The notes beneath the pieces are model-generated. The model was not told where the DNA came from. It worked only from the letters and a program-made list of their open reading frames with translations, and ran no database searches. Below, piece by piece: positions 4,909 to 15,535 of a stretch of 64,000 nucleotides of DNA. The position numbers were made by a program, and so were the translations under genes. Location: NCBI GenBank assembly GCA_963765765.1, contig CAVXYC010000015.1:320001-384000 (forward strand), given 5' to 3'. Positions within the stretch are counted from its first letter, which is position 1. Each line of letters begins with the position of its first letter. Origin of the DNA: an uncultured Chloroflexia bacterium. Lineage in GTDB: Bacteria > Chloroflexota > UBA6077 > JACCZL01.

Positions 4909-5097
4909 ATGACGGATGAACGCGGAAGCGAGCTAGGGCGACAGTTGGTGGCGCGTCGACGCATTGTCGAGCGACCGTGCGTCGTGTGCGGGACCACCAT
5001 TAGCGGAACGGTGAGGCGTCAATACTGCTCTAATCGATGCCGGGTGGCCGCATACACGAAGCGGAAGCGCGAACAGCGGACGAAGGAGACCAGCTGA
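4909..5097 (+). CDS. Small zinc-ribbon protein coupled to the integrase
   Basis: CVVC-x11-YCSNRC followed by a basic helix; its TGA overlaps the integrase ATG (TGATG, 5095-5099). Confidence 0.65.
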   Translation: MTDERGSELGRQLVARRRIVERPCVVCGTTISGTVRRQYCSNRCRVAAYTKRKREQRTKETS

Positions 5098-6236
5098 TGG
5101 CTGGACGACGCGGTCACGGGGAAGGTTCAATCTACCAGCGGCAAGACGGACGTTGGGTCGCAGTTCTGGATCTCGGTTTGAAGGAAGGAAAGCGACGACG
5201 CAAATCGCTCTACGCGTCCACTCGACGCGAGGCGCAAGAGGCCCTTAGCAAGGCGCATCATCAGCAGTTCGCAGGAAGCCTCGCCACAGGCCCGCGATTA
5301 ACGGTTGAGCGCTACGTTCAGCAATGGCTCGAAGAGTCTGTTCGTCATAGAGTCAAACCTAGGACTTTTTCGAGCTACAACCAGCTAGTACGACTTCACG
5401 TTGCCCCAGGGCTGGGCAAGTTGCAATTGGCGAAGCTTCAAGCGAAGGACTTGCAGCATTTCTACAGCAAGAAACTGGAGACTCTATCGCCGCGGACCGT
5501 CGAGTATCTTCACGCGATTATCCATCGGGCGCTCAAGGAGGCCGAACGCCTGGACCTCGTTAGCAGAAATGTGGCTGATCTAGTAAGCCCTCCTCGTCCA
5601 ACCCGAAAGTCGGTGCGATTCCTGGCACCGCGCGAAGTGGAAGCGTTTCTCGCCGCGGTCAGTGCCGATCGGCTCGGGCCACTGTTCACGGTTGCCCTAT
5701 TTACGGGGTTACGACAGGGAGAATTGCTCGGTTTGAGATGGCCCGACGTGGATTTGTCAACTCAATCCTTGACGGTCGGTCAAACACTGCAACTCATCGA
5801 TGGAAAGTTAGTCTTCGGTCAACCAAAGAGTGGTACATCACGACGCACCGTGCCATTGACGCCCCAGGCATGCGAAGCTCTGCGGGCTTGGCGGACAACG
5901 CAAGTCCAGTCTCAACTTCAAGCCGGGCCAGCGTGGCATGAGTCAGGGCTCGTGTTCACATCAGAGATTGGAACGCCGTTGTTCGCTCGAAATGTCACAA
6001 GGCGACTACACAAACTCGTTCAAGCTGCTGGGTTAGTAGATATCAAGTTCCACGAGCTTCGTCACTCGACCGCAAGTCTTCTTATTGCCGCCGGGGAGCA
6101 ACTGAAGGTCGTGCAAGAGATCCTAGGACATAGCCAGATCAGTGTGACTGCGGATTACTACAGCCATCTGGCACCAGGGCTGAAGGAAAGTGCGATGAGC
6201 CGACTCGATGCACTGGTGCGTTCCCAAGCCCGCTAG
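5097..6236 (+). CDS. Tyrosine recombinase / phage-ICE type site-specific integrase
   Basis: N-terminal arm-binding segment (GEGSIYQRQDGRW); catalytic motifs GLRQGELLGL, HELRHS, LGHS and Y (TADYYSH); RBS AAGGAG. Confidence 0.95.
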   Translation: MAGRRGHGEGSIYQRQDGRWVAVLDLGLKEGKRRRKSLYASTRREAQEALSKAHHQQFAGSLATGPRLTVERYVQQWLEESVRHRVKPRTFSSYNQLVRLHVAPGLGKLQLAKLQAKDLQHFYSKKLETLSPRTVEYLHAIIHRALKEAERLDLVSRNVADLVSPPRPTRKSVRFLAPREVEAFLAAVSADRLGPLFTVALFTGLRQGELLGLRWPDVDLSTQSLTVGQTLQLIDGKLVFGQPKSGTSRRTVPLTPQACEALRAWRTTQVQSQLQAGPAWHESGLVFTSEIGTPLFARNVTRRLHKLVQAAGLVDIKFHELRHSTASLLIAAGEQLKVVQEILGHSQISVTADYYSHLAPGLKESAMSRLDALVRSQAR

Positions 6237-6645: not shown

Positions 6646-6705
6646 AAATGTCAAAGCCTGGCGACTCGCGTCAACCAGGCCTTGAAATTCGAGATTAGAA
6701 ACCGG

Positions 6706-6778
6706 TGAGCCGCCGGGGACTCGAACCCCGAACCGGCTGATTAAGAGTCAGCTGCTCTGCCAGTTGAGCTAGCGGCCC
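6706..6778 (-). tRNA. tRNA-Lys (CTT)
   Basis: GGGCCGCTAGCTCAACTGGCAGAGCAGCTGACT-CTT-AATCAGCCGGTTCGGGGTTCGAGTCCCCGGCGGCTCA; cloverleaf intact, CCA not encoded. Confidence 0.97.
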
Positions 6779-7455
6779 GGGGAGATGATACGGGATGCGC
6801 GACGGGTGCGCCAAACGTGGGATGGTGCGCGGTGGTGCCGATTGGCGGGTATTCGGGCGGTCTGGCGGGACGCTCGTTGTGCGGTGGTGTCGGCCGTTTG
6901 CCCGACTAACGTGGCTTGTTTGGTCGAATGAGCTTGCGGGTTGAGTGCGAGCTTACGGTCGGGCAGGATGCCCGACACCACCGGGAATGCGATGCTCGAT
7001 GAGGTCTAGGGTGGCGGTTTTGGCGGCGCTGCGCGTGCGGGCGGGATGCCCGGGGTTACGGTTTGGCTGAGGTGGTGTAGTTATGGTCGCAACGAACGTG
7101 AGCCTATCCATCGGCCGGTAATCGTCGGCGTCGGCTTGTGTGCCCACACCGATGTGGCGCGATCGCTCGATTGGGGAATGTGGCGCAGCACCTGCACCGG
7201 CCCAGCCCGGGTGAGCTGGCGCACTCAAGCGGCGCTGTGGGAGAAGCCGGTGAGACGTGTTGGGCGCCACTTACGCGCTGGATCCCTCTCCAAGCATTTT
7301 GGGCGGGACTCCGATGCTGATGCAGCAATTGTTGCCACCGAGACTGGACAGCCAGAGACGGCTGCCCCACCGAGGCGCTCGGCCAGCGGAGGTCAATTTT
7401 CGCTCGCGGCGCTATGTGCTACGCTCTCAGCAATCAGCCCCGATGGAGTCGGCAT

Positions 7456-7950
7456 ATGACCGATACGATGGAACGGCCCATCCTGAAGCCGGGCGAGGAA
7501 TGGGTCTGGGACTACCCTCAGCCCGCGTTTATTGAGGATTCAACACGTCACGTGCGGGTTGTCTTCAATGACGTGGTCATCGCGGATACGCGGCGGGCCA
7601 AGCGCGTATGCGAGCAGGGGCAGCCGCCCGTTTTCTACATTCCGCCAGACGACGTAAAGATGGAATATCTGCAGGGGTCGGATCTCAGCACCACTTGACC
7701 ATGGCGAGGGCAGGCAGTGTACTTCACCGTTCAGGTGAACGACCGCGCTGCTGCCAACGGGGTATGGTCATACCCCAATCCCATTCCGGACGCCGAGCCG
7801 GTTCGAGATTACCTGGCGTTTTATCCAGGTAGGATGGACGCGTGCTTCGTCGATGACGAGCTCGTGAACAGCCAGGGCAGTGAATACTACGGCGGCTGGG
7901 TCATTGAAGGTATCGTCGGGCCATTCAAGAAGCGTCCCGGCGAGAAGTAG
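7456..7950 (+). CDS. DUF427 family protein with in-frame TGA (codon 81) at the conserved Cys; predicted selenoprotein
   Basis: ORFs 7414..7698 and 7717..7950 are in the same frame; read-through gives WDYPQP...PPVFYIP...STT-U-PWRGQAVYF...WSYPNP...YYGGW...GPFK. Family pattern is TxC(P/E)WKG. Confidence 0.8.
7709..7755 (+). promoter_or_regulatory. Bacterial SECIS-like hairpin
   Basis: Upper stem TTCACC/GGTGAA closes loop GTTCA (first base G, 30 nt after the TGA); lower stem GGCA-G-GCAGTG pairs with CGCTGCTGCC. Confidence 0.65.
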
Positions 7951-8056
7951 CAATTTAGAGAACGCTCAAAAGAGGACTGGAAGTCACATTCGTCACTCGA
8001 CATCGGGCGGTGCGCTGATCTGACGCATCGCCTGTTTTTATCAGGGAACAGACACT

Positions 8057-8587
8057 ATGGCCGATTTCCCTACAACCCGTGACGAAGCGCTGACCGCGAT
8101 TGAGCGAGCACGCGCTGCATTCAAGCAGGCATACAAAGATGTTCCCGACGCGGCGTTACGCTACCTCCCCGAGGGCGATGATTATTCGCTCGGTGGGCTC
8201 ATCGTCCACGTGGCGAACGCCATGGAGAACTATGTGACGGTACTTGACCGGATGAAGGCTGAGAGCTTCAGACGAATGAAAGCAGCCGAGGGCTCAGGCG
8301 AAACGCCCGAAATGCTGAAGGCGTTGAAGCACGGCTTTGATGGTCCGGAGCGCGCCAGGCATTGGTCCCGGCTCGATATCGTGCACGCGGCACTGGTGAA
8401 TAATGTGAACGCTCTGGGCGATCAAGACTTCGGCCGCACCGCACCCATTCTCTTTGGCGCCGCCACCGAGCCGCTGGACACGAACGCCGCCATGATCATG
8501 GGCTGGATGATCGACCACTACCGCGACCACGTCAGTCAAGTGCGAGACATGCTGGCGGAGTGGCAGGCGGACGAGCAGCCGACTTAG
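8057..8587 (+). CDS. DinB/YfiT superfamily protein
   Basis: YSLGGLIVHVA near the N-terminus and DHYRDH near the C-terminus (DinB His pattern). Confidence 0.8.
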   Translation: MADFPTTRDEALTAIERARAAFKQAYKDVPDAALRYLPEGDDYSLGGLIVHVANAMENYVTVLDRMKAESFRRMKAAEGSGETPEMLKALKHGFDGPERARHWSRLDIVHAALVNNVNALGDQDFGRTAPILFGAATEPLDTNAAMIMGWMIDHYRDHVSQVRDMLAEWQADEQPT

Positions 8588-8637
8588 GATCGGAGGCTGG
8601 CTGGTGTTTGCGCTGTGTCAGACTTTGTGCGCGGGAG

Positions 8638-8664
8638 GAACCGCACCCTTACGGGATGCGGCTC
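8638..8664. terminator. Hairpin between convergent genes
   Basis: GAACCGCACCC-TTAC-GGGATGCGGCTC imperfect stem-loop. Confidence 0.45.
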
Positions 8665-8672
8665 TGTCTCGG

Positions 8673-11172
8673 TCAGTCCCGGCGGACTTTGAGGCGGTCG
8701 CCTAGCTCCGCGAATGTGGTTGCCCACTCCTGGGCGAGGGAGTCGCCGTTGGCGGCTTCCTCGTAGATAGTCGGCGCTGTTTGCTGGAGGACGCGGTAAT
8801 ACACGTTCTGCGCCTTCCAGACGTCGGCCTCAAACGGAAGCTGCTCGCCCAGCGCCACAAGGGCATTTAGACGGCCGAGTAGCTCTCGGTCGTCGGGCTG
8901 TTCGGAGAACGTTGTCGCCATTGTGTCCACGGCGCGTTTCATTGCGAATCGGAGGGAGACCGTGTCGAGCGAAAGCTGCCATTCTCTCGCGCGGGTCGTG
9001 AGCGCGTCAACGGCCTCCGAATCCAGCTCTTCCTGCTCCAGACATCGGCGCAGATCGGTATTTACGATGAGCTCCACGGCTGCGCGAAGCGGTTTGGGGA
9101 TTGGCGCACCCAGGCCCACCAGGAACCTGATGAGCGGCTCGTTGTGCTCTGCGATGCGGTGGTACTCGGTCTCTGTCTCGGACAGCGTCGTATCCAGAAT
9201 TCGATCCAGTACCTGGCGCTGCTCATCCCGGAAGAGCGATCGAAGTGAATACGCGCTCTCGCCAAAATGGCGATCGAAGACGCGTATGACCTCCGGAAGG
9301 TCTGCGCGCTCGAACGGCTCGGAGACCTCCTCGATGATCTTTTGATAGGACGCTTCGTTGGCGTACTCCACAACTCCCGCGCTGAGATTGTGATCGCCCA
9401 TATGCACCGCGCCAAAGGCAAAAAGCTCGGACTCCAGGCTGATGTGGGATGTGATTCGGGCCGATCCGACGCCCAGTGAGACACGGCCAGCCTCGCGGTG
9501 CTGAAAATCGACGAGCTCAGCATCGAACCCGTAGACCGTCGCCTGCTCCGGGTATTGTTGAAAGAGGGATCGCACCGCGTAGTGCGCTGCCACTTGCTTG
9601 AGATCCACTTTGGCCGGTCGAACAAATCGCTCGTAAATCTGTCGGCCGTTGCCCATCTCGGGGATATTGCTGCGAGCCCGCTCCAACATCGCGATGAATC
9701 GTCCCTCGAGGCTCTTTGAGGCAGCGGCCGCCCGCGTAGTCACAAATGGCGGCTCCAGAAGCTCGGCGAAGCGGGCATCGGAGTTGCTTGTAAAGATCTC
9801 ATCCGCAAGCTGAATCGCTCTCCCCGCGTACTGAATGACCTGAACCGGCTCAATTCCTGAGATCTCGTCAAAGAACCAGCCACAGCTCGTGTACATGAGC
9901 ATCGCGTGACGTTGGAGCTCCATGAGCTTCAGAACCGTGGTTGTCTCCGCTTTGTTTAAGCTGCGCTTCGCGTGGCGCATCAAAAAGTCGTCAATACAGT
10001 CAGATGACCGATCCATCATGACGCTGACGTAGTCGTCCCGGGCCGTCCAGGGATCGCGCAGATATTCGCTCGCGTGCTTCTCGAATTGCGGTCCCAGCGT
10101 GTCACGCAGCCAGTCCAGCGACTCGCGCAAGGGCCTTCGCCACTCCTGATTCCAGCCTGATTGTCCGCCGGTACTGCAGCCGCAGTTTGCCCGCCAGCGC
10201 TCTATACCGTGCGCGCAGCTCCAGGACGTGTTGTCGATGACCTCGGCTTCATAGGTCGGTGGGAACCGCTCCAGATACTCACCGTAGTTGGTGATTGTGG
10301 CAATGCCGTGGCTCTCGATGTATTCCAGCGCGTAGGCGAGCGCCATATCGCCGTGGGGATGGTGGTGGCCGTACGTCTCGCCGTCAGTAGCGATGTGGAC
10401 GAGCTGCGACCAATCACGGTTGTCGCTGAAACCAGTGCGCAGCCGTTGAGCAAAGACCTCGCCGCTACCGAGCAGGTTCTCGAAGGCCACCGCTTGAGAA
10501 ATCGGACCATCGTAGAAGAACACGGCGATGCTCTTGCCGCGCGGAAGCGCAACGCGATACGCACGGGTTGGGTCAACGCCGCCGGGCCCATGGTCTTCCC
10601 AGCTCTGCTTGCCGATTTGTCGCACGCGACCCGCTTGATACGGCGAGAGCACGGTGTATTTGATGCCATGCTCTGCCATGATCGAGAGGCTCTCGAGGTC
10701 GACGGCCGTTTCGGCCAGCCACATGCCCTCGGGCTTGCGTTTGAAACGATGCTCAAAGTCAGCAATGCCCCAGATGACCTGCGTCTCCTTGTCGCGGCGA
10801 TTTGCCAGGGGCAGGATCATGTGGTTATAGGCCTGGGCAATTGCGGATCCATGGCCGGAGAATCGCTCCTGGCTCTCCAGGTCCGCCTCAAGGATGGCTT
10901 GATAGACGTCCGGCGTCCTGTTCTTCCATCCAGCCCAGGAGCGTGGGGCCGATGTTGAAGCTGATGCGCGCATAGTTGTTGACTATTGAGGCGATGCGAC
11001 CATCGCCATCAAGTATGCGGGACGTCGCGTTGGGGCCATAGCACTCCGCGGTAATGCGCTCGTTCCAGTCGTGAAACGGGTACGCGGAATCTTGAAGCTC
11101 CACCGTTTCCAGCCAGGGATTCTCCCGTGGCGGCTGATAAAAGTGGCCGTGGATGCAAATAAATCGTTCCAT
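8673..11172 (-). CDS. Glycoside hydrolase family 57 protein with DUF3536 domain, frameshift near 10920
   Basis: MERFICIHGHFYQPPRENPW...SFNIGPTLL then AQAYNHMILPLAN, GMWLAE, ATDGETYGHH, SWSCAHG, YTSCGWFFD. Confidence 0.9.
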
Positions 11173-11303
11173 GATGATGACTTAGCGTTCCTGTCTAGAT
11201 GGGCCGAGCATGGGCCGGAATTCCAGTGCGCGCACCGGAGCACGTGTTCTTGGAGCAACGTCGTGCAGACGAAAAGAATTGCTCGGTTGAAGGGGCTACA
11301 CAG

Positions 11304-13256
11304 TTAAGTAGGCTCGTTGGCGACGGGTTTCAGGAATAGCGCTGCCAGAGGCGGCAATGTCAATAAAACTGAATGGGGCTGGCCATGTCGCGATTCGGAG
11401 CTGGCTTCAACAAAGCTCGCGTTCCCGAGGCCGCTTCCCCCGTAGATGTCGGCATCGCTGTTAAGGATCTCTCGCCAGGTGCCGGGCTGTGGAACCCCAA
11501 GCTGATAACCATGCCGCGGCACGGGTGTGAAATTGAACACCGCCACAACAACGTCTTCCGGACTTTCGCCAATGCGCATCCAGCTCAGTACGCTGTTGTT
11601 AATGTCGCCACCGTCGATCCAGGTGTAGCCGCCGGGCTCAAAATCACGTGCGTGCAGAGCGGTTGTCTCCTTGTACATGGCGTTCAGGTCCGTGAGCCAT
11701 TGCTGAACCCCTCGGTGCTGAGGGTACTCCAGCGCATGCCACTCTACGCTTGAATCGTGCCGCCATTCGCTCCACTGGCCAATCTCGTCGCCCATGAAGA
11801 GCAGCTTTTTGCCCGGTTGGCCATACATGTAGCCATAGAGCAGTCGAAGGTTGGCGAACTTTTGCCAGTCATCGCCGGGCATCTTGCTGAAGAGCGAGCC
11901 TTTGCCGTGGACCACCTCATCGTGTGATAGCGGTAGAACAAAGTTCTCTTGAAAGGCGTACACCATACGGAAAGTGATCTCGTTGTGGTGATACTGGCGA
12001 TAGATGGGCGCACGCGACATGTACTCGAGTGTGTCGTGCATCCAGCCCATGTCCCACTTCATACCGAAGCCCAGTCCGCCGGCATACGTGGGCCGTGACA
12101 CCATGGGCCAGGAGGTTGACTCCTCAGCCATGGTCTGCACATCCGGGAAGGTGCCGTAAACCTCTTCGTTGAGCCGGCGAAGAAAGGAGATCGCCTCGAG
12201 GTTCTCTCGTCCGCCGAACTCGTTGGGGATCCACTCGCCTTCTTTACGGGAGTAGTCGAGATAGAGCATGGAGGCCACGGCATCTACGCGCAGTCCGTCC
12301 GCATGGTACCGATCCAGCCAATAGAGCGCACTGCTCAACAAGAACGATCGCACCTCATTGCGACCATAATTGAAGATCAGGCTCTTCCAGTCCGGGTGGA
12401 AGCCTTTACGCTGGTCTTCATGCTCGTACAGATGTGTCCCGTCGAAATAGCCCAGGCCGTGTTCATCGGACGGAAAGTGCGATGGCACCCAGTCCAGTAT
12501 GACTCCGATCCCTCGTTGATGAAGACCATCGACCAGAGTCATGAAATCCTGGGGCGTTCCAAAGCGGCTTGATGGGGCAAAGTAGCCGGTGGTCTGATAG
12601 CCCCACGAGCCAAAGAATGGGTGCTCCATCACGGGCATAAGCTCCACGTGCGTGAAGCCGAGCTGCTCAACATAATCCGCGAGCTTTGTCGCCAGCTCCG
12701 CATAGTTGAGCGACCGGTTGCCATCATCGGGCACGCGCATCCACGATCCGAGATGCACTTCGTAGATGCTCATTGGAGCGCGGCCGCTATTGTGCTTGCC
12801 ACGCGATGACATCCAGTCGGTATCACGCCAGTCATAGGCTAGGTCCCAGACCACGGAGCCCGTTCGCGGCGGCATCTCGTGATACACGCCAAACGGATCA
12901 GCCTTCTCCACCCGGTAAGCCCTGTTTCGGGATGCCACGAAGTACTTGTAGATGGTGCCGGGCTGGATGTCCGGGATGAAGCCCTCCCAGATTCCGGATG
13001 ACCCGCGTGGACGTAACTCATGGCTGGTCCGATTCCAGCCATTGAAGTCGCCCATGACGTTGACGGCCTCGGCGTTCGGCGCCCACACCGCGAAATACAC
13101 GCCTTCAACCCCATCAACCGTGACGGGATGTGCCCCCAGGCGCTCATAGAGTCGTGAATGGTTGCCCTCATTGAACAGGTGCAGATCCACTTCACCGAGG
13201 AGGCTCGGAGACTTCCCGCTCAGTACTGGCTTGGTGCTATTTGTGCCTTGAGTCAC
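11304..13256 (-). CDS. glgB: 1,4-alpha-glucan branching enzyme
   Basis: FAVWAPNA, IYEVHLGSW, SWGYQTTGYFAP, GLRVDAVASMLYLDYSR, AEEST, LSHDEVVHGK. Confidence 0.97.
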   Translation of the reverse strand: MTQGTNSTKPVLSGKSPSLLGEVDLHLFNEGNHSRLYERLGAHPVTVDGVEGVYFAVWAPNAEAVNVMGDFNGWNRTSHELRPRGSSGIWEGFIPDIQPGTIYKYFVASRNRAYRVEKADPFGVYHEMPPRTGSVVWDLAYDWRDTDWMSSRGKHNSGRAPMSIYEVHLGSWMRVPDDGNRSLNYAELATKLADYVEQLGFTHVELMPVMEHPFFGSWGYQTTGYFAPSSRFGTPQDFMTLVDGLHQRGIGVILDWVPSHFPSDEHGLGYFDGTHLYEHEDQRKGFHPDWKSLIFNYGRNEVRSFLLSSALYWLDRYHADGLRVDAVASMLYLDYSRKEGEWIPNEFGGRENLEAISFLRRLNEEVYGTFPDVQTMAEESTSWPMVSRPTYAGGLGFGMKWDMGWMHDTLEYMSRAPIYRQYHHNEITFRMVYAFQENFVLPLSHDEVVHGKGSLFSKMPGDDWQKFANLRLLYGYMYGQPGKKLLFMGDEIGQWSEWRHDSSVEWHALEYPQHRGVQQWLTDLNAMYKETTALHARDFEPGGYTWIDGGDINNSVLSWMRIGESPEDVVVAVFNFTPVPRHGYQLGVPQPGTWREILNSDADIYGGSGLGNASFVEASSESRHGQPHSVLLTLPPLAALFLKPVANEPT

Positions 13257-15370
13257 GATGTTCCCGTCTGACGCGCTCGATGAATCATGTTGAGCGTACC
13301 GAGTACGTCCTGATTCGATTTGAACTCTTCCATGGAATAGCGGGCTTTACGCCGCCAGTTCTCCCAATCATCGCCCGTACCGGGGACGTTCTGTGGCTCA
13401 CGCTCGAGCCAGAGATCCTCTAGCGTGACCATCAAGACCTGCGCAGGGCCGGCGGCGAGTCGCTCCAGTATGCCCTGAAGCGCCACCATCGCTGAGTCGG
13501 CGCCTTCAAGAACCTGCGCTTTGCCCAGAAATCTGAGGAGCGCCTGCTCGAGATGGGCCCGCTCTTCGCGTCGTTCTCTAAAATCATCATCGTCTATGAG
13601 CTCGAGCCGGCGCATAATTTCGATGTCCAGCCCATCCCAGAAGCCGCCGAAAAGCACCGTATCATGAGTATTCACGCTGGCCATTGAAGTCGCCGGCGCG
13701 GGCGGTAAAGCCTTCTCAACTGGGGATGACATTTCAAATTGCGCTACATACATGCGCAGGAAGTCATGTTCTGTCATGGCGGCCCGGACCGACTCCGGTA
13801 CGGTCCCGAGATCTTCCCCAACAATCGGGCACTGGAAGCGACGCGACTCTAGAGCAAGAATCGCGTACATCTCGTCAGGCGCGAATCGAACGTAGACACC
13901 ATCTTGAGCGCCCATGCCTTGCGGGATCCAGAACAGGCGCATGAGACCCATGACGTGATCGATGCGCAATGCACCCGCAAAGCGCAGGTGATTGCGTATT
14001 GCGTCGATGAAGTAGCTGTATCCCTGGTCGCGGATGGCCTGAGGCTGCATGGGCGGAAAGCCCCAGTTCTGTCCGCCGGTAAAGAACATATCGGGTGGCG
14101 CCCCCACCGATATGCCGTTTGCAAACGAGGCTCGCTCGCGCCACGTGTCGTACGAGTCGGGATGCACCCCCAGTGGAAAATCGAGGTACAGCCTGGCTCC
14201 CACTTCGCGGGAGCGGTCAGCCAGCCGATTGATCTGCTGGAAGAGCTGCCATTGCGCGTACAGATGGTAGCGTTGCCGAGCGGGGTCGAAGTCGCTTACC
14301 TCGATCCGCCCGTCGCGGGGGCCGTCCGGCCAGACGATCCAGCCGGATCGCTGTCGTTCTTGAACAGCGCGGAATTGGGCGTAGTCGTTCGCTCGAGGCT
14401 GTCTGGCAAGAAACGCTTGGAAGCCCGAATCGCGTTCTCCGCCTCGCTCGAAGAAGCACGCTGAAAGCGGCTCGAGCACTGCGCGCTGACCCTCAGACCA
14501 CGCCCGATAGTCGACGTGATTGACGTGGTTTTGCGAAGACAACCGGGGCTGGTTGGCTAGCAGCGACTGCGCGGCCGGGCAGCTCGCCAGCTCGGGAATC
14601 TGCTCGAGGTCCAGGAAGAGCTCGTTCCAGAACAGTCGCGAGGCTGGTGAATACGGGCTCGGATCGAACGGCTCATCCAGAAACGTGGCCAGCAGCGGCA
14701 GGGTGCCTACCAGCGACCCGCCCATTCTGGCGGTCCACGAAGTGAATTCTTCGAGATCGCTGAGCGTGCCACCCCATCGGCTATGCCGCGAGCGGAGCGC
14801 GTGGAGCGGCATGAAGACGCCCCATCGACGCGCCTGATCGCTATCAGCGGCGTATGTCCATGCCGTCTTCGGCGCGCTGATGATACGTGACTCATCGCGG
14901 CGTCCGTCGATTTCGACGCTGAACCGGTGGTAACCCATCGGCATGTCCTGGAGCTGACCTAGCTCTTTGACGAGATACAGCGCACCGTCAACTTCCGCGG
15001 TTTCAATCGTTGTCAGATCGGAGAGCGTGACGCTCCAGGGGTGTTGGCTGCCGTTCTCGAGCCGGAGCACGCAGGCACACCGCGATCGCTCGAGACTGGC
15101 CGGGATTCGAAGGGTGGTGCTGGATGAGCGACCGCCCCAGGCGATCAGCACGGGCTCCAGGCGGCGCGACCAGCGATCGATCTGTCGCTCCCGCAGTGCG
15201 CTGGGCGCGTCGGCGGGCGAGCCCAGAGGCGCGCCAAGTGATTGCAGCACCTTGATGAGCGCATCATCGGGCGCTGAACGCTCAGCGCCCCAGATATCGC
15301 GGTAGGTTGTGTCGATCCCGTAAGTCGTAGCGAGCGCGGCGAGCCCGGGATCGTTTGCAGATGTTCTCAT
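13253..15370 (-). CDS. malQ: 4-alpha-glucanotransferase (amylomaltase, GH77)
   Basis: PSPYSPASR, LYLDFPLG, GAPPD..GQNWG, LRIDHVMG, VGEDLG, NTHD, QNVPGT..NWRRK. Start placed at ATG 15370 (ORF track extends to 15523). Confidence 0.93.
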   Translation of the reverse strand: MRTSANDPGLAALATTYGIDTTYRDIWGAERSAPDDALIKVLQSLGAPLGSPADAPSALRERQIDRWSRRLEPVLIAWGGRSSSTTLRIPASLERSRCACVLRLENGSQHPWSVTLSDLTTIETAEVDGALYLVKELGQLQDMPMGYHRFSVEIDGRRDESRIISAPKTAWTYAADSDQARRWGVFMPLHALRSRHSRWGGTLSDLEEFTSWTARMGGSLVGTLPLLATFLDEPFDPSPYSPASRLFWNELFLDLEQIPELASCPAAQSLLANQPRLSSQNHVNHVDYRAWSEGQRAVLEPLSACFFERGGERDSGFQAFLARQPRANDYAQFRAVQERQRSGWIVWPDGPRDGRIEVSDFDPARQRYHLYAQWQLFQQINRLADRSREVGARLYLDFPLGVHPDSYDTWRERASFANGISVGAPPDMFFTGGQNWGFPPMQPQAIRDQGYSYFIDAIRNHLRFAGALRIDHVMGLMRLFWIPQGMGAQDGVYVRFAPDEMYAILALESRRFQCPIVGEDLGTVPESVRAAMTEHDFLRMYVAQFEMSSPVEKALPPAPATSMASVNTHDTVLFGGFWDGLDIEIMRRLELIDDDDFRERREERAHLEQALLRFLGKAQVLEGADSAMVALQGILERLAAGPAQVLMVTLEDLWLEREPQNVPGTGDDWENWRRKARYSMEEFKSNQDVLGTLNMIHRARQTGTS

Positions 15371-15535
15371 CAAGGGTGGCTCAGCGTTCCAATTTGGCCC
15401 GGCAAGAAACGAGAGCGGCTTCATCGGTCTCAGGAGACCTATGAAGCGCGGTGGATTGTGCCCCGCGAAATTCTGCTGTTCGAGCGTGCAGACGAGGCCG
15501 AGGAGTGCGGTTCCGCGGGGCACAAGACCACCGCG

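Follow-up and report, generated by a model that had tools for sequence, protein, structure and literature searches.

Does the in-frame TGA that divides a DUF427 gene of an uncultured Chloroflexia bacterium end that gene, or is it read as selenocysteine (Sec)? The gene occupies positions 7456-7950 of a 64,000-nucleotide stretch of contig C15 (hereafter the window, meaning the whole of that stretch; GenBank contig CAVXYC010000015.1, positions 320,001 to 384,000), within a genome assembly of 6.49 Mb, 33 contigs and 61% GC. A sequence-only reading of this DNA had noted two same-frame open reading frames, parted by the TGA alone and otherwise intact, and had proposed that the UGA, standing at the conserved cysteine of DUF427, specifies Sec. 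We find this very probably correct. Because the UGA is conserved, the hairpin that starts at it covaries, the codons downstream are under selection and the genome possesses the Sec machinery, we read 7456-7950 as a genuine Sec-decoded DUF427 selenoprotein gene, and none of the refutation tests run (machinery, TGA-bearing homologues, independent assemblies, hairpin) contradicted the proposal.

Evaluating the gene itself, we found one DUF427 frame in which the sole TGA reads ..LSTT-U-PWRGQAVYF.., with no further stops or frameshifts from end to end (Table 1). The 164-residue read-through product matched PF04248 (DUF427) at 117.4 bits (cut-off 22.1; E 2.4e-34), with residues 33-124 spanning positions 1-92 of the 93 in the profile, that is, its full length. 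PF04248 was the only match in a Pfam scan of the read-through protein, and an NCBIfam search returned no family matching it, hence no selenoprotein-specific model. The family motif TxC(P/E)(W/Y)KG had been placed at the TGA from the letters alone, and the homologues bear this out: across 80 metagenome loci (82 aligned matches) the column holds Cys in 76, a stop in 5 and Arg in 1, it is a nearly invariant Cys (at least 90%) in a 67-sequence alignment of long-form proteins (A4), and all other aligned homologues have Cys there, degenerate second copies excepted.

The proposal had also been staked on relatives sharing the TGA, and nine genes in total carry it at the Cys column, distributed over the window genome, a congener (G001) and three metagenome contigs (L079, L080 and L081). 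These genes fall into two paralogous types. Type A (RVCEQG.., U-PWRG) comprises the window gene and its orthologues in L079 (98% identity), L080 (88%), G001 (79%) and L081 (76%); type B (RLLERG.., U-PWKG), about 51% identical to type A, is found on contig C21 of the same genome and in G001, L080 and L081. The two types stand in tandem, A then B, in G001, L080 and L081, and the base following the UGA is C in all nine genes. A quick maximum-likelihood tree of 74 long-form sequences, with the Sec column kept in the alignment, set the nine on one side of one branch (Shimodaira-Hasegawa-like approximate likelihood ratio test, SH-aLRT, 91) and gave A and B 99 each, a topology that fits one Cys-to-Sec change followed by duplication.

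Purifying selection appears the same downstream of the TGA as upstream, judged from pairwise ratios of nonsynonymous to synonymous divergence (dN/dS). Among the five type A orthologues dN/dS was 0.056-0.187 after the UGA and 0-0.122 before it, and type B gave 0.052-0.212 and 0.086-0.174, respectively, with dS at about 0.85-1.56 in the comparisons downstream of the UGA. Contigs from a soil RNA library, belonging to a related strain, cover the gene (one spans 7387-7772, another 7711-7998), which says nothing on translation; of the differences listed within the gene, third codon positions account for 12 of the 13 upstream of the UGA and 9 of the 11 downstream, and indels occur past the TAG stop.

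The sequence-only reading had described an extended hairpin at 7709-7755 with its apical loop 30 nt past the UGA. Hairpin, loop and spacing stand, whereas the extent does not: the actual element covers 7696-7770 (75 nt), with a lower stem (7696-7703/7763-7770) that includes the UGA, a middle stem (7709-7720/7745-7755) and an apical stem (7723-7728/7734-7739) closed by the loop GUUCA (7729-7733). Folding 7690-7770 gave a minimum free energy (MFE) of -37.5 kcal/mol (z -3.49), a stability reached by none of 200 dinucleotide shuffles. The model of the bacterial Sec insertion sequence (bSECIS) in Fig. 2 of PMC13188914 specifies a 3-9 nt loop that has G at its first or second position, followed mostly by G or U, an upper stem of 4-16 bp, a UGA-to-loop distance of 16-37 nt and an MFE of at most -7.5 kcal/mol. 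With a 5-nt loop starting GU, a 6-bp upper stem, 30-nt spacing and an upper stem-loop that alone folds at -7.7 kcal/mol, the window hairpin fits this model, in agreement with the standard bacterial signature, G-first apical loop included, that had been claimed for it.

A covarying hairpin in the TGA-bearing relatives, which the sequence-only reading had named as a check on itself, is indeed present. In the nine aligned elements 93.8% of cells were paired, compared with 22-52% when partners were slid; the covariation score was 0.165 against 0.085 for shuffled alignments, a value attained by 0 of 500 shuffles, and pair 21-54 is compensatory (AU in 3, GC in 3, CG in 2). The hairpin is specific to the TGA genes: mean MFE and mean z were -35.2 kcal/mol and -3.40 in the nine Sec genes, versus -24.4 kcal/mol and +0.09 in 109 distinct Cys homologues folded over the equivalent 75 nt starting at the Cys codon, with GC at 0.62 in both sets. 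Lower-stem codons are fixed in all nine Sec genes (Pro after the UGA, Val as GTA, Ser as TCA). In Cys homologues, by comparison, Glu follows the Cys in 99 of 109, and TCA lies outside the 12 commonest codons at the Ser site.

Sec decoding capacity was assessed by profile search of the genome contigs, and the selA, selB, selC and selD genes for which the sequence-only reading had wanted a search were all found. Both selA (555.5 bits) and selB (312.4 bits, or 337.1 with a C-terminal piece) scored above their curated cut-offs, and they lie side by side on contig C14, neither with internal stops; selD, on contig C21, scored 381.6 bits and is the only selD above the cut-off in the genome; and a tRNA-Sec (anticodon tca) is encoded on C15, the contig of the window. 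The selD gene, which is at the same time senC (see below), itself has a UGA at the known GAG-U-ACK site, as do its counterparts in four other Chloroflexota genomes; the selD of congener G001 is Sec-containing. TGA is the commonest stop in the genome, closing 771 of 1624 open frames of at least 400 codons, and we ruled out a general reassignment of TGA (codes 4 or 25) by these TGA-ended long frames together with the stop-free selA and selB.

Two readings deny Sec at this position. If the TGA were a true stop, the locus would be a pseudogene or two small genes; gene calling has divided every copy seen in the databases, TGA is so common a stop here, and TAA nonsense codons do occur in some Cys-type long-form homologues (L097/L098 and L102/L105; contexts ASY*SI and GPL*G, two contigs each, probably pseudogenes). 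Against this, the TGA is kept at one column in nine genes whose proteins differ by up to about 50% at a dS of about 1, dN/dS downstream is 0.05-0.21, the downstream part has no conserved start and bears the invariant C-terminal half of the domain, and the hairpin goes with the TGA; we hold a true stop to be very improbable. That the TGA is a misread or misassembled TGC or TGT, an outcome that the sequence-only reading had kept in view, would be compatible with the probable indel errors elsewhere in this assembly (a split senA and an extra base in type B, relative to G001). Those suspected errors, however, are indels and not substitutions, and the independent assemblies G001, L079, L080 and L081 all carry TGA and not TGC or TGT. 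In run X2 one DNA contig spans 7619-7769 with one differing letter, and none of the four contig runs compared with the gene differed at 7696-7698 among the differences listed, X2 included, which lends weak support, all four being Logan contigs and not read pile-ups and run X1 having no cover at the TGA. An error at this codon is, in our judgement, extremely improbable.

Several observations nonetheless weigh against Sec decoding. The Sec form is rare, found in 2 of 39 genomes of the order and 2 of 401 genomes sampled from the phylum, and a scan of 185,579 species yielded one species record with it, the scan pattern (T-U-P-W-[KR]-G-x-A-x-Y-F) being narrow and missing Sec forms with other neighbouring residues. 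Statistics computed over the nine Sec genes overstate the support, given how closely these genes are related. Within the hairpin, the MFE apical loop lacks an initial G in five of the nine Sec genes (the other four have G within the first two loop positions, and the five fit only if the top 1-2 pairs open), the invariant G34-U35 also encodes Thr-Val, and the lower stem never varies and is also coding-constrained; an Rfam scan of 7400-8000 (E <= 10) gave three chance-level matches and no SECIS family at the hairpin. Finally, the type B copy on C21 has one extra base compared with G001 and L080 and is frameshifted as assembled; this extra base and the split senA may both be assembly indels.

The pattern scan returned one contig of a Chloroflexota metagenome-assembled genome with two matches in the same layout as G001. 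A Limnohabitans contig that also matched was set aside as chance, its match lying in no DUF427 frame. Within the phylum sample, one further genome (G082) has a DUF427 match with one TGA and one TAA, which we took as a probable pseudogene.

Table 1. Features of the Sec-DUF427 locus in the window and of related loci elsewhere in the genome; positions without a contig prefix are those of the window.
Feature	Position	Strand	Remarks
Sec-containing DUF427 coding sequence, type A (very probable)	7456..7950	+	164 codons, Sec at codon 81; one frame, full-length PF04248 match
Start codon ATG	7456	+	supported by database fragments beginning MTDTMERP
Stop codon TAG	7948-7950	+	read from sequence
GGAG, likely ribosome-binding site	7445..7448	+	7 nt before ATG 7456; suggested by the sequence
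UGA, probably read as selenocysteine (U81)	7696..7698	+	at the conserved Cys in TxC[PE][WY]KG
Predicted SECIS element, extended hairpin	7696..7770	+	fold, covariation, bSECIS model
DinB_2 superfamily gene, 176 aa	8057..8587	+	PF12867 match, E 1.3e-8
Phage-type integrase gene	5037-6236	+	just upstream of the DUF427 gene
tRNA-Lys(CTT)	6704-6778	-	just upstream of the DUF427 gene
Glycogen/alpha-glucan run: GH57/DUF3536, GlgB-like branching enzyme, 4-alpha-glucanotransferase	8673-15523	-	unrelated to the finding
Selenoneine-type cluster	G000:C21:109036-115160 (L048 9036-15193)		Sec-DUF427 type B, senC/selD, ABC ATPase, split senA, senB
egtB-egtD pair	G000:C20:125296-127532		423.1 and 354 bits, both above cut-offs

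How such a gene has stood in the databases became apparent on searching 5.8 billion predicted proteins, where relatives at 63-98% identity occurred only as fragments cut at the TGA. Nine of the ten N-terminal fragments returned stop exactly at residue 80 (..TT or ..ST), the tenth being a Cys form cut by a contig end, and three fragments begin [MV]YFTV, just past the UGA. The fragments on record are 57-87 residues long and go by the names 'hypothetical protein' or 'DUF427 family', and the best full-length protein among the matches listed (best 120 of 129) was 59% identical. The sequence-only reading did not place DUF427 among the standard selenoprotein families, and a full-text literature search likewise gave no report of DUF427 as a selenoprotein in searchable main texts; supplementary tables, which lay outside that search, may list it. 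The main text of PMC13188914 (2026), which in its Table 1 sets out 119 prokaryotic selenoprotein families and subfamilies, contains neither 'DUF427' nor 'PF04248', and most such selenoproteins are thought there to serve redox functions. For comparison, PMC12013277 reports 9 new selenoprotein families in 20 genomes.

Sec-DUF427 shares with the selenoproteins that depend on SelB and a SECIS element (SelD, peroxiredoxin-like and DUF-type families among those in Table 1 of PMC13188914) the UGA at a conserved Cys, the downstream stem-loop within the coding sequence, its apical loop beginning with G and lying 16-37 nt past the UGA, the co-presence of selA, selB, selC and selD, and Cys forms that far outnumber the Sec form. 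It differs from them in its unusually long hairpin (~75 nt), with the UGA in the base, and in its two tandem Sec paralogues. DUF427 is most likely a previously unlisted selenoprotein family of a well-known bacterial kind.

We then considered where Sec would sit in the protein. An AlphaFold model from the 67-sequence alignment (mean predicted local distance difference test, pLDDT, 92.7) has residue 81 ending strand 72-81, at a beta-hairpin turn. The only solved relative is 3djm, a Rhodobacter sphaeroides DUF427 protein of unknown function, which a PDB sequence search found at E 1.1e-11 with the Cys motif aligned (tCPlkG) and which superposes on the model at Z 16.4 with a root-mean-square deviation of 1.5 A over 112 residues (VIA) and a target-normalised TM score of 0.91 (Foldseek). 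The two have in common a full-profile family match and the fold, but the Sec protein has Sec for Cys and is a long form, extended by a WDYP segment at the N terminus and by MDAC...YGGW..GPFK, which holds Cys130, at the C terminus, whereas 3djm has only 116 residues.

Below 3djm the VIA matches were beta-tent proteins at modest Z values, in the range that the tool calls common: Mis18/yippee (7.4 and 6.8), the RIG-I C-terminal domain (5.5), cereblon (5.3), human MsrB1 (4.8), S. aureus MsrB (4.0), MSS4 (3.4), GFA (3.0) and TCTP (2.7). Foldseek against the PDB gave, beyond 3djm, weak yippee/Mis18 matches only (Foldseek probability 0.63). This agrees with PMC4287342, which places DUF427 in the beta-tent fold and describes it as without a zinc site. 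We do not class the protein as an MsrB: MsrB came up only in the VIA search (Z 4.0-4.8), and Pfam gave no SelR/MsrB match.

Under the mechanism that we propose, the ribosome would arrive at the UGA, the mRNA hairpin would recruit SelB with Sec-tRNA(Sec), presumably by binding SelB, and insertion of Sec would give a 164-residue beta-tent DUF427 protein in which Sec81 replaces the conserved Cys. Sec81 would act as a catalytic redox nucleophile, since, as a rule, Sec takes the place of a catalytic redox Cys, and a column where Sec and Cys alternate is accepted as marking such a residue. We infer, with the sequence-only reading, a redox-active Cys/Sec in DUF427. Once reacted, Sec81 would be resolved by Cys130 or, in type A, by Cys52, and then re-reduced by a thiol system. 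The extra Cys52 (RVCEQ), offered earlier as a possible resolving residue, is real, but it is not a general one, because type B (RLLERG) lacks it: C52 is confined to paralogue type A, and the 67-sequence alignment has a nearly invariant Leu (at least 90%) at that column. Cys130 (MDAC), invariant in 67 of 67 long-form sequences, appears to be the better candidate; R50, E53, P58, G85, A87, Y89, W104 and Y106 are also invariant in this alignment.

The model for such chemistry, as an analogy only, is MsrB, in which a Cys or Sec nucleophile reduces S=O or Se=O and a second Cys resolves it; mammalian MsrB1 is a selenoprotein. MsrB shares with Sec-DUF427 the beta-tent fold class (PMC4287342), but differs in having no sequence similarity to it, and DUF427 is without a zinc site according to the same paper.

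To which substrate might this redox chemistry apply? The earlier account of the locus captured the Sec gene itself but saw neither the second Sec paralogue, nor a DinB_2 partner, nor a link to a selenoneine cluster, and it is these that suggest an answer. In the window a DinB_2 gene follows the DUF427 gene, and its orthologues follow same-strand DUF427 genes in L079 (91% identity), L080 (78%, cut by the contig end) and G001 (71%), such that L080 has A, B and DinB_2, while L079 and the window have A and DinB_2; next to Cys-type homologues no such partner was found. EgtB and SenA have the DinB_2 fold in their N-terminal domain. In G001 one strand carries DinB_2, type B and type A, and divergent from them run senC, a Phosphonate-bd binding protein, an ATP-binding cassette (ABC) ATPase, a permease, an intact senA of 449 residues and senB. 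In the window genome, type B on C21 is divergent from and adjoins selD/senC, whose downstream neighbours are an ABC ATPase, an EgtB-like gene broken into two overlapping frames (DinB_2, then FGE-sulfatase) and a TIGR04348 glycosyltransferase, which is senB (349.1 bits; cut-off 300). The window DUF427 and DinB_2 genes are thus part of a three-gene unit that is split in this genome.

The genes senC, senA and senB are described as the selenoneine biosynthesis cassette in a preprint (10.1101/2022.04.13.486033), and the C21 set is that cassette: this genome and G001 both have senC, senA (DinB_2 plus FGE-sulfatase) and senB, together with an ABC transporter. As the preprint describes it, the cassette has three genes, and DUF427 and a stand-alone DinB_2 are not in it. 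An egtB-egtD pair on contig C20 indicates that the organism can probably make hercynine and ergothioneine besides selenoneine. Two Cys homologues stand next to genes of this kind: L094 (623-3456), which the tree places close to the Sec clade, comes directly after egtD and an egtB-like gene, and L126 (19-1233) comes directly after an egtB-like gene. Table 1 of PMC13674229 lists DUF427 (COG2343) as co-encoded with 5.7% of NHISS (EgtB/SenA-type) genes, an entry given there without comment.

Given that in G001 the A/B/DinB_2 unit lies divergent beside senC, the ABC transporter, senA and senB, we suggest that paralogues A (window) and B (C21), with DinB_2, might act on oxidised seleno- or thio-imidazole species, a role that we regard as possible and put forward tentatively. 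Candidate reactions would be the reduction of the selenenic acid left after selenoxide elimination by SenA, or the recycling of oxidised selenoneine; the preprint leaves the step from selenenic acid to selenoneine to 'reduction or disproportionation', with no enzyme named at that point. Extending this to the whole family, so that A, B and DinB_2 would be selenoneine accessory enzymes, reducing for instance the selenenic acid or selenoxide from SenA, and Cys81 would be catalytic family-wide, with Cys members serving ergothioneine-type thiols made by egtB/egtD, is a rather unlikely generalisation.

The main rival to a selenoneine role is that this genuine selenoprotein is a general thiol/selenol oxidoreductase or stress protein, which merely shares a selenium-regulated neighbourhood with selD, its adjacency to selD/senC marking a co-regulated 'selenium island'; we consider this quite possible, if somewhat short of probable. 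Much of what speaks for it also counts against selenoneine. Eight Chloroflexota genomes among the 401 sampled have SenB, and in the six other than the two with an adjoining Sec-DUF427 no DUF427 match lies in the 8-20 kb examined around the sen cluster; long-form DUF427 (E <= 1e-35), by comparison, is present in 65 of the 401. In this genome the window copy lies away from the sen cluster, by glycogen genes and a tRNA-Lys/integrase junction, and only two of the Cys-homologue loci examined stand beside egtB-like genes. Moreover, the genome has no selD above the cut-off other than senC, which therefore supplies Sec synthesis as well. Sec-DUF427 is not regularly co-located with senA, senB and senC: it is an occasional neighbour of sen clusters and not a core member. 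Against a general oxidoreductase stand the unit that in G001 runs divergent from senC with nothing between them (and type B likewise here), a partner with the EgtB/SenA N-terminal fold, a Cys homologue near the Sec clade that follows egtD and egtB (L094), and the published 5.7% co-occurrence with NHISS genes.

Another rival dispenses with small-molecule redox catalysis altogether and makes the protein a selenium carrier, which would use a Sec or Cys exposed at the tip of the hairpin to deliver perselenide or selenotrisulfide to SenC/SelD or to SenB. It draws on the neighbourhood, which adjoins senC and an ABC transporter with a Phosphonate-bd binding protein, on the putative selenate transporter reported near many sen clusters (10.1101/2022.04.13.486033) and on the predicted position of Sec at a beta-hairpin turn. 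We saw no homology to known selenium-binding proteins, however, the Cys form is widespread in genomes without SenB, and the invariant residues point to a defined pocket for a substrate, such as other beta-tent proteins have (PMC4287342), and we therefore judge a carrier improbable.

If the gene is decoded as we propose, DUF427 joins the list of prokaryotic selenoproteins, having been cut in two by gene callers in every copy seen, and the combination of DUF427, a TGA at the Cys column and a hairpin would serve as a rule for rescuing further copies in annotation. Its interest reaches beyond a new family, to the active-site pointer, the tandem pair of Sec paralogues and the connection with the selenoneine cluster. 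Should the Sec/Cys pointer hold, the widespread DUF427, with its structure solved and its function unassigned, would gain a testable active site, and the adjacency to senC, senA and senB, along with the 5.7% co-occurrence, would make it a candidate for the selenoneine step left to 'reduction or disproportionation'. One locus would in this way link two selenium traits, Sec decoding and a selenium metabolite.

Of the surroundings of the window gene, the phage-type integrase gene and tRNA-Lys just upstream may mark a junction, at which either the pair of type A and DinB_2 was relocated or an element integrated. A promoter and terminator scan of 6780-8720 gave nothing usable on the + strand.

A separate observation concerns SenB (TIGR04348) in other Chloroflexota. 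Two SenB genes, L175 (G018:C130) and L177 (G087:C156), have an in-frame TGA at the same column, at positions 10628 and 4060, respectively, in the contexts HWRV*RLIAGSH and HWRA*QLTAGSH; in other SenBs this column is occupied by F, R or M and not by Cys. The main text of PMC13188914 contains neither 'glycosyltransferase' nor 'TIGR04348'. About 17 nt downstream of the TGA both genes have a hairpin, GAGUCA-CGUGC-UGACUC in the one and GAGCCA-CGUGC-UGGCUC in the other, with one compensatory pair between them, and on these features the two may be Sec-containing SenBs.

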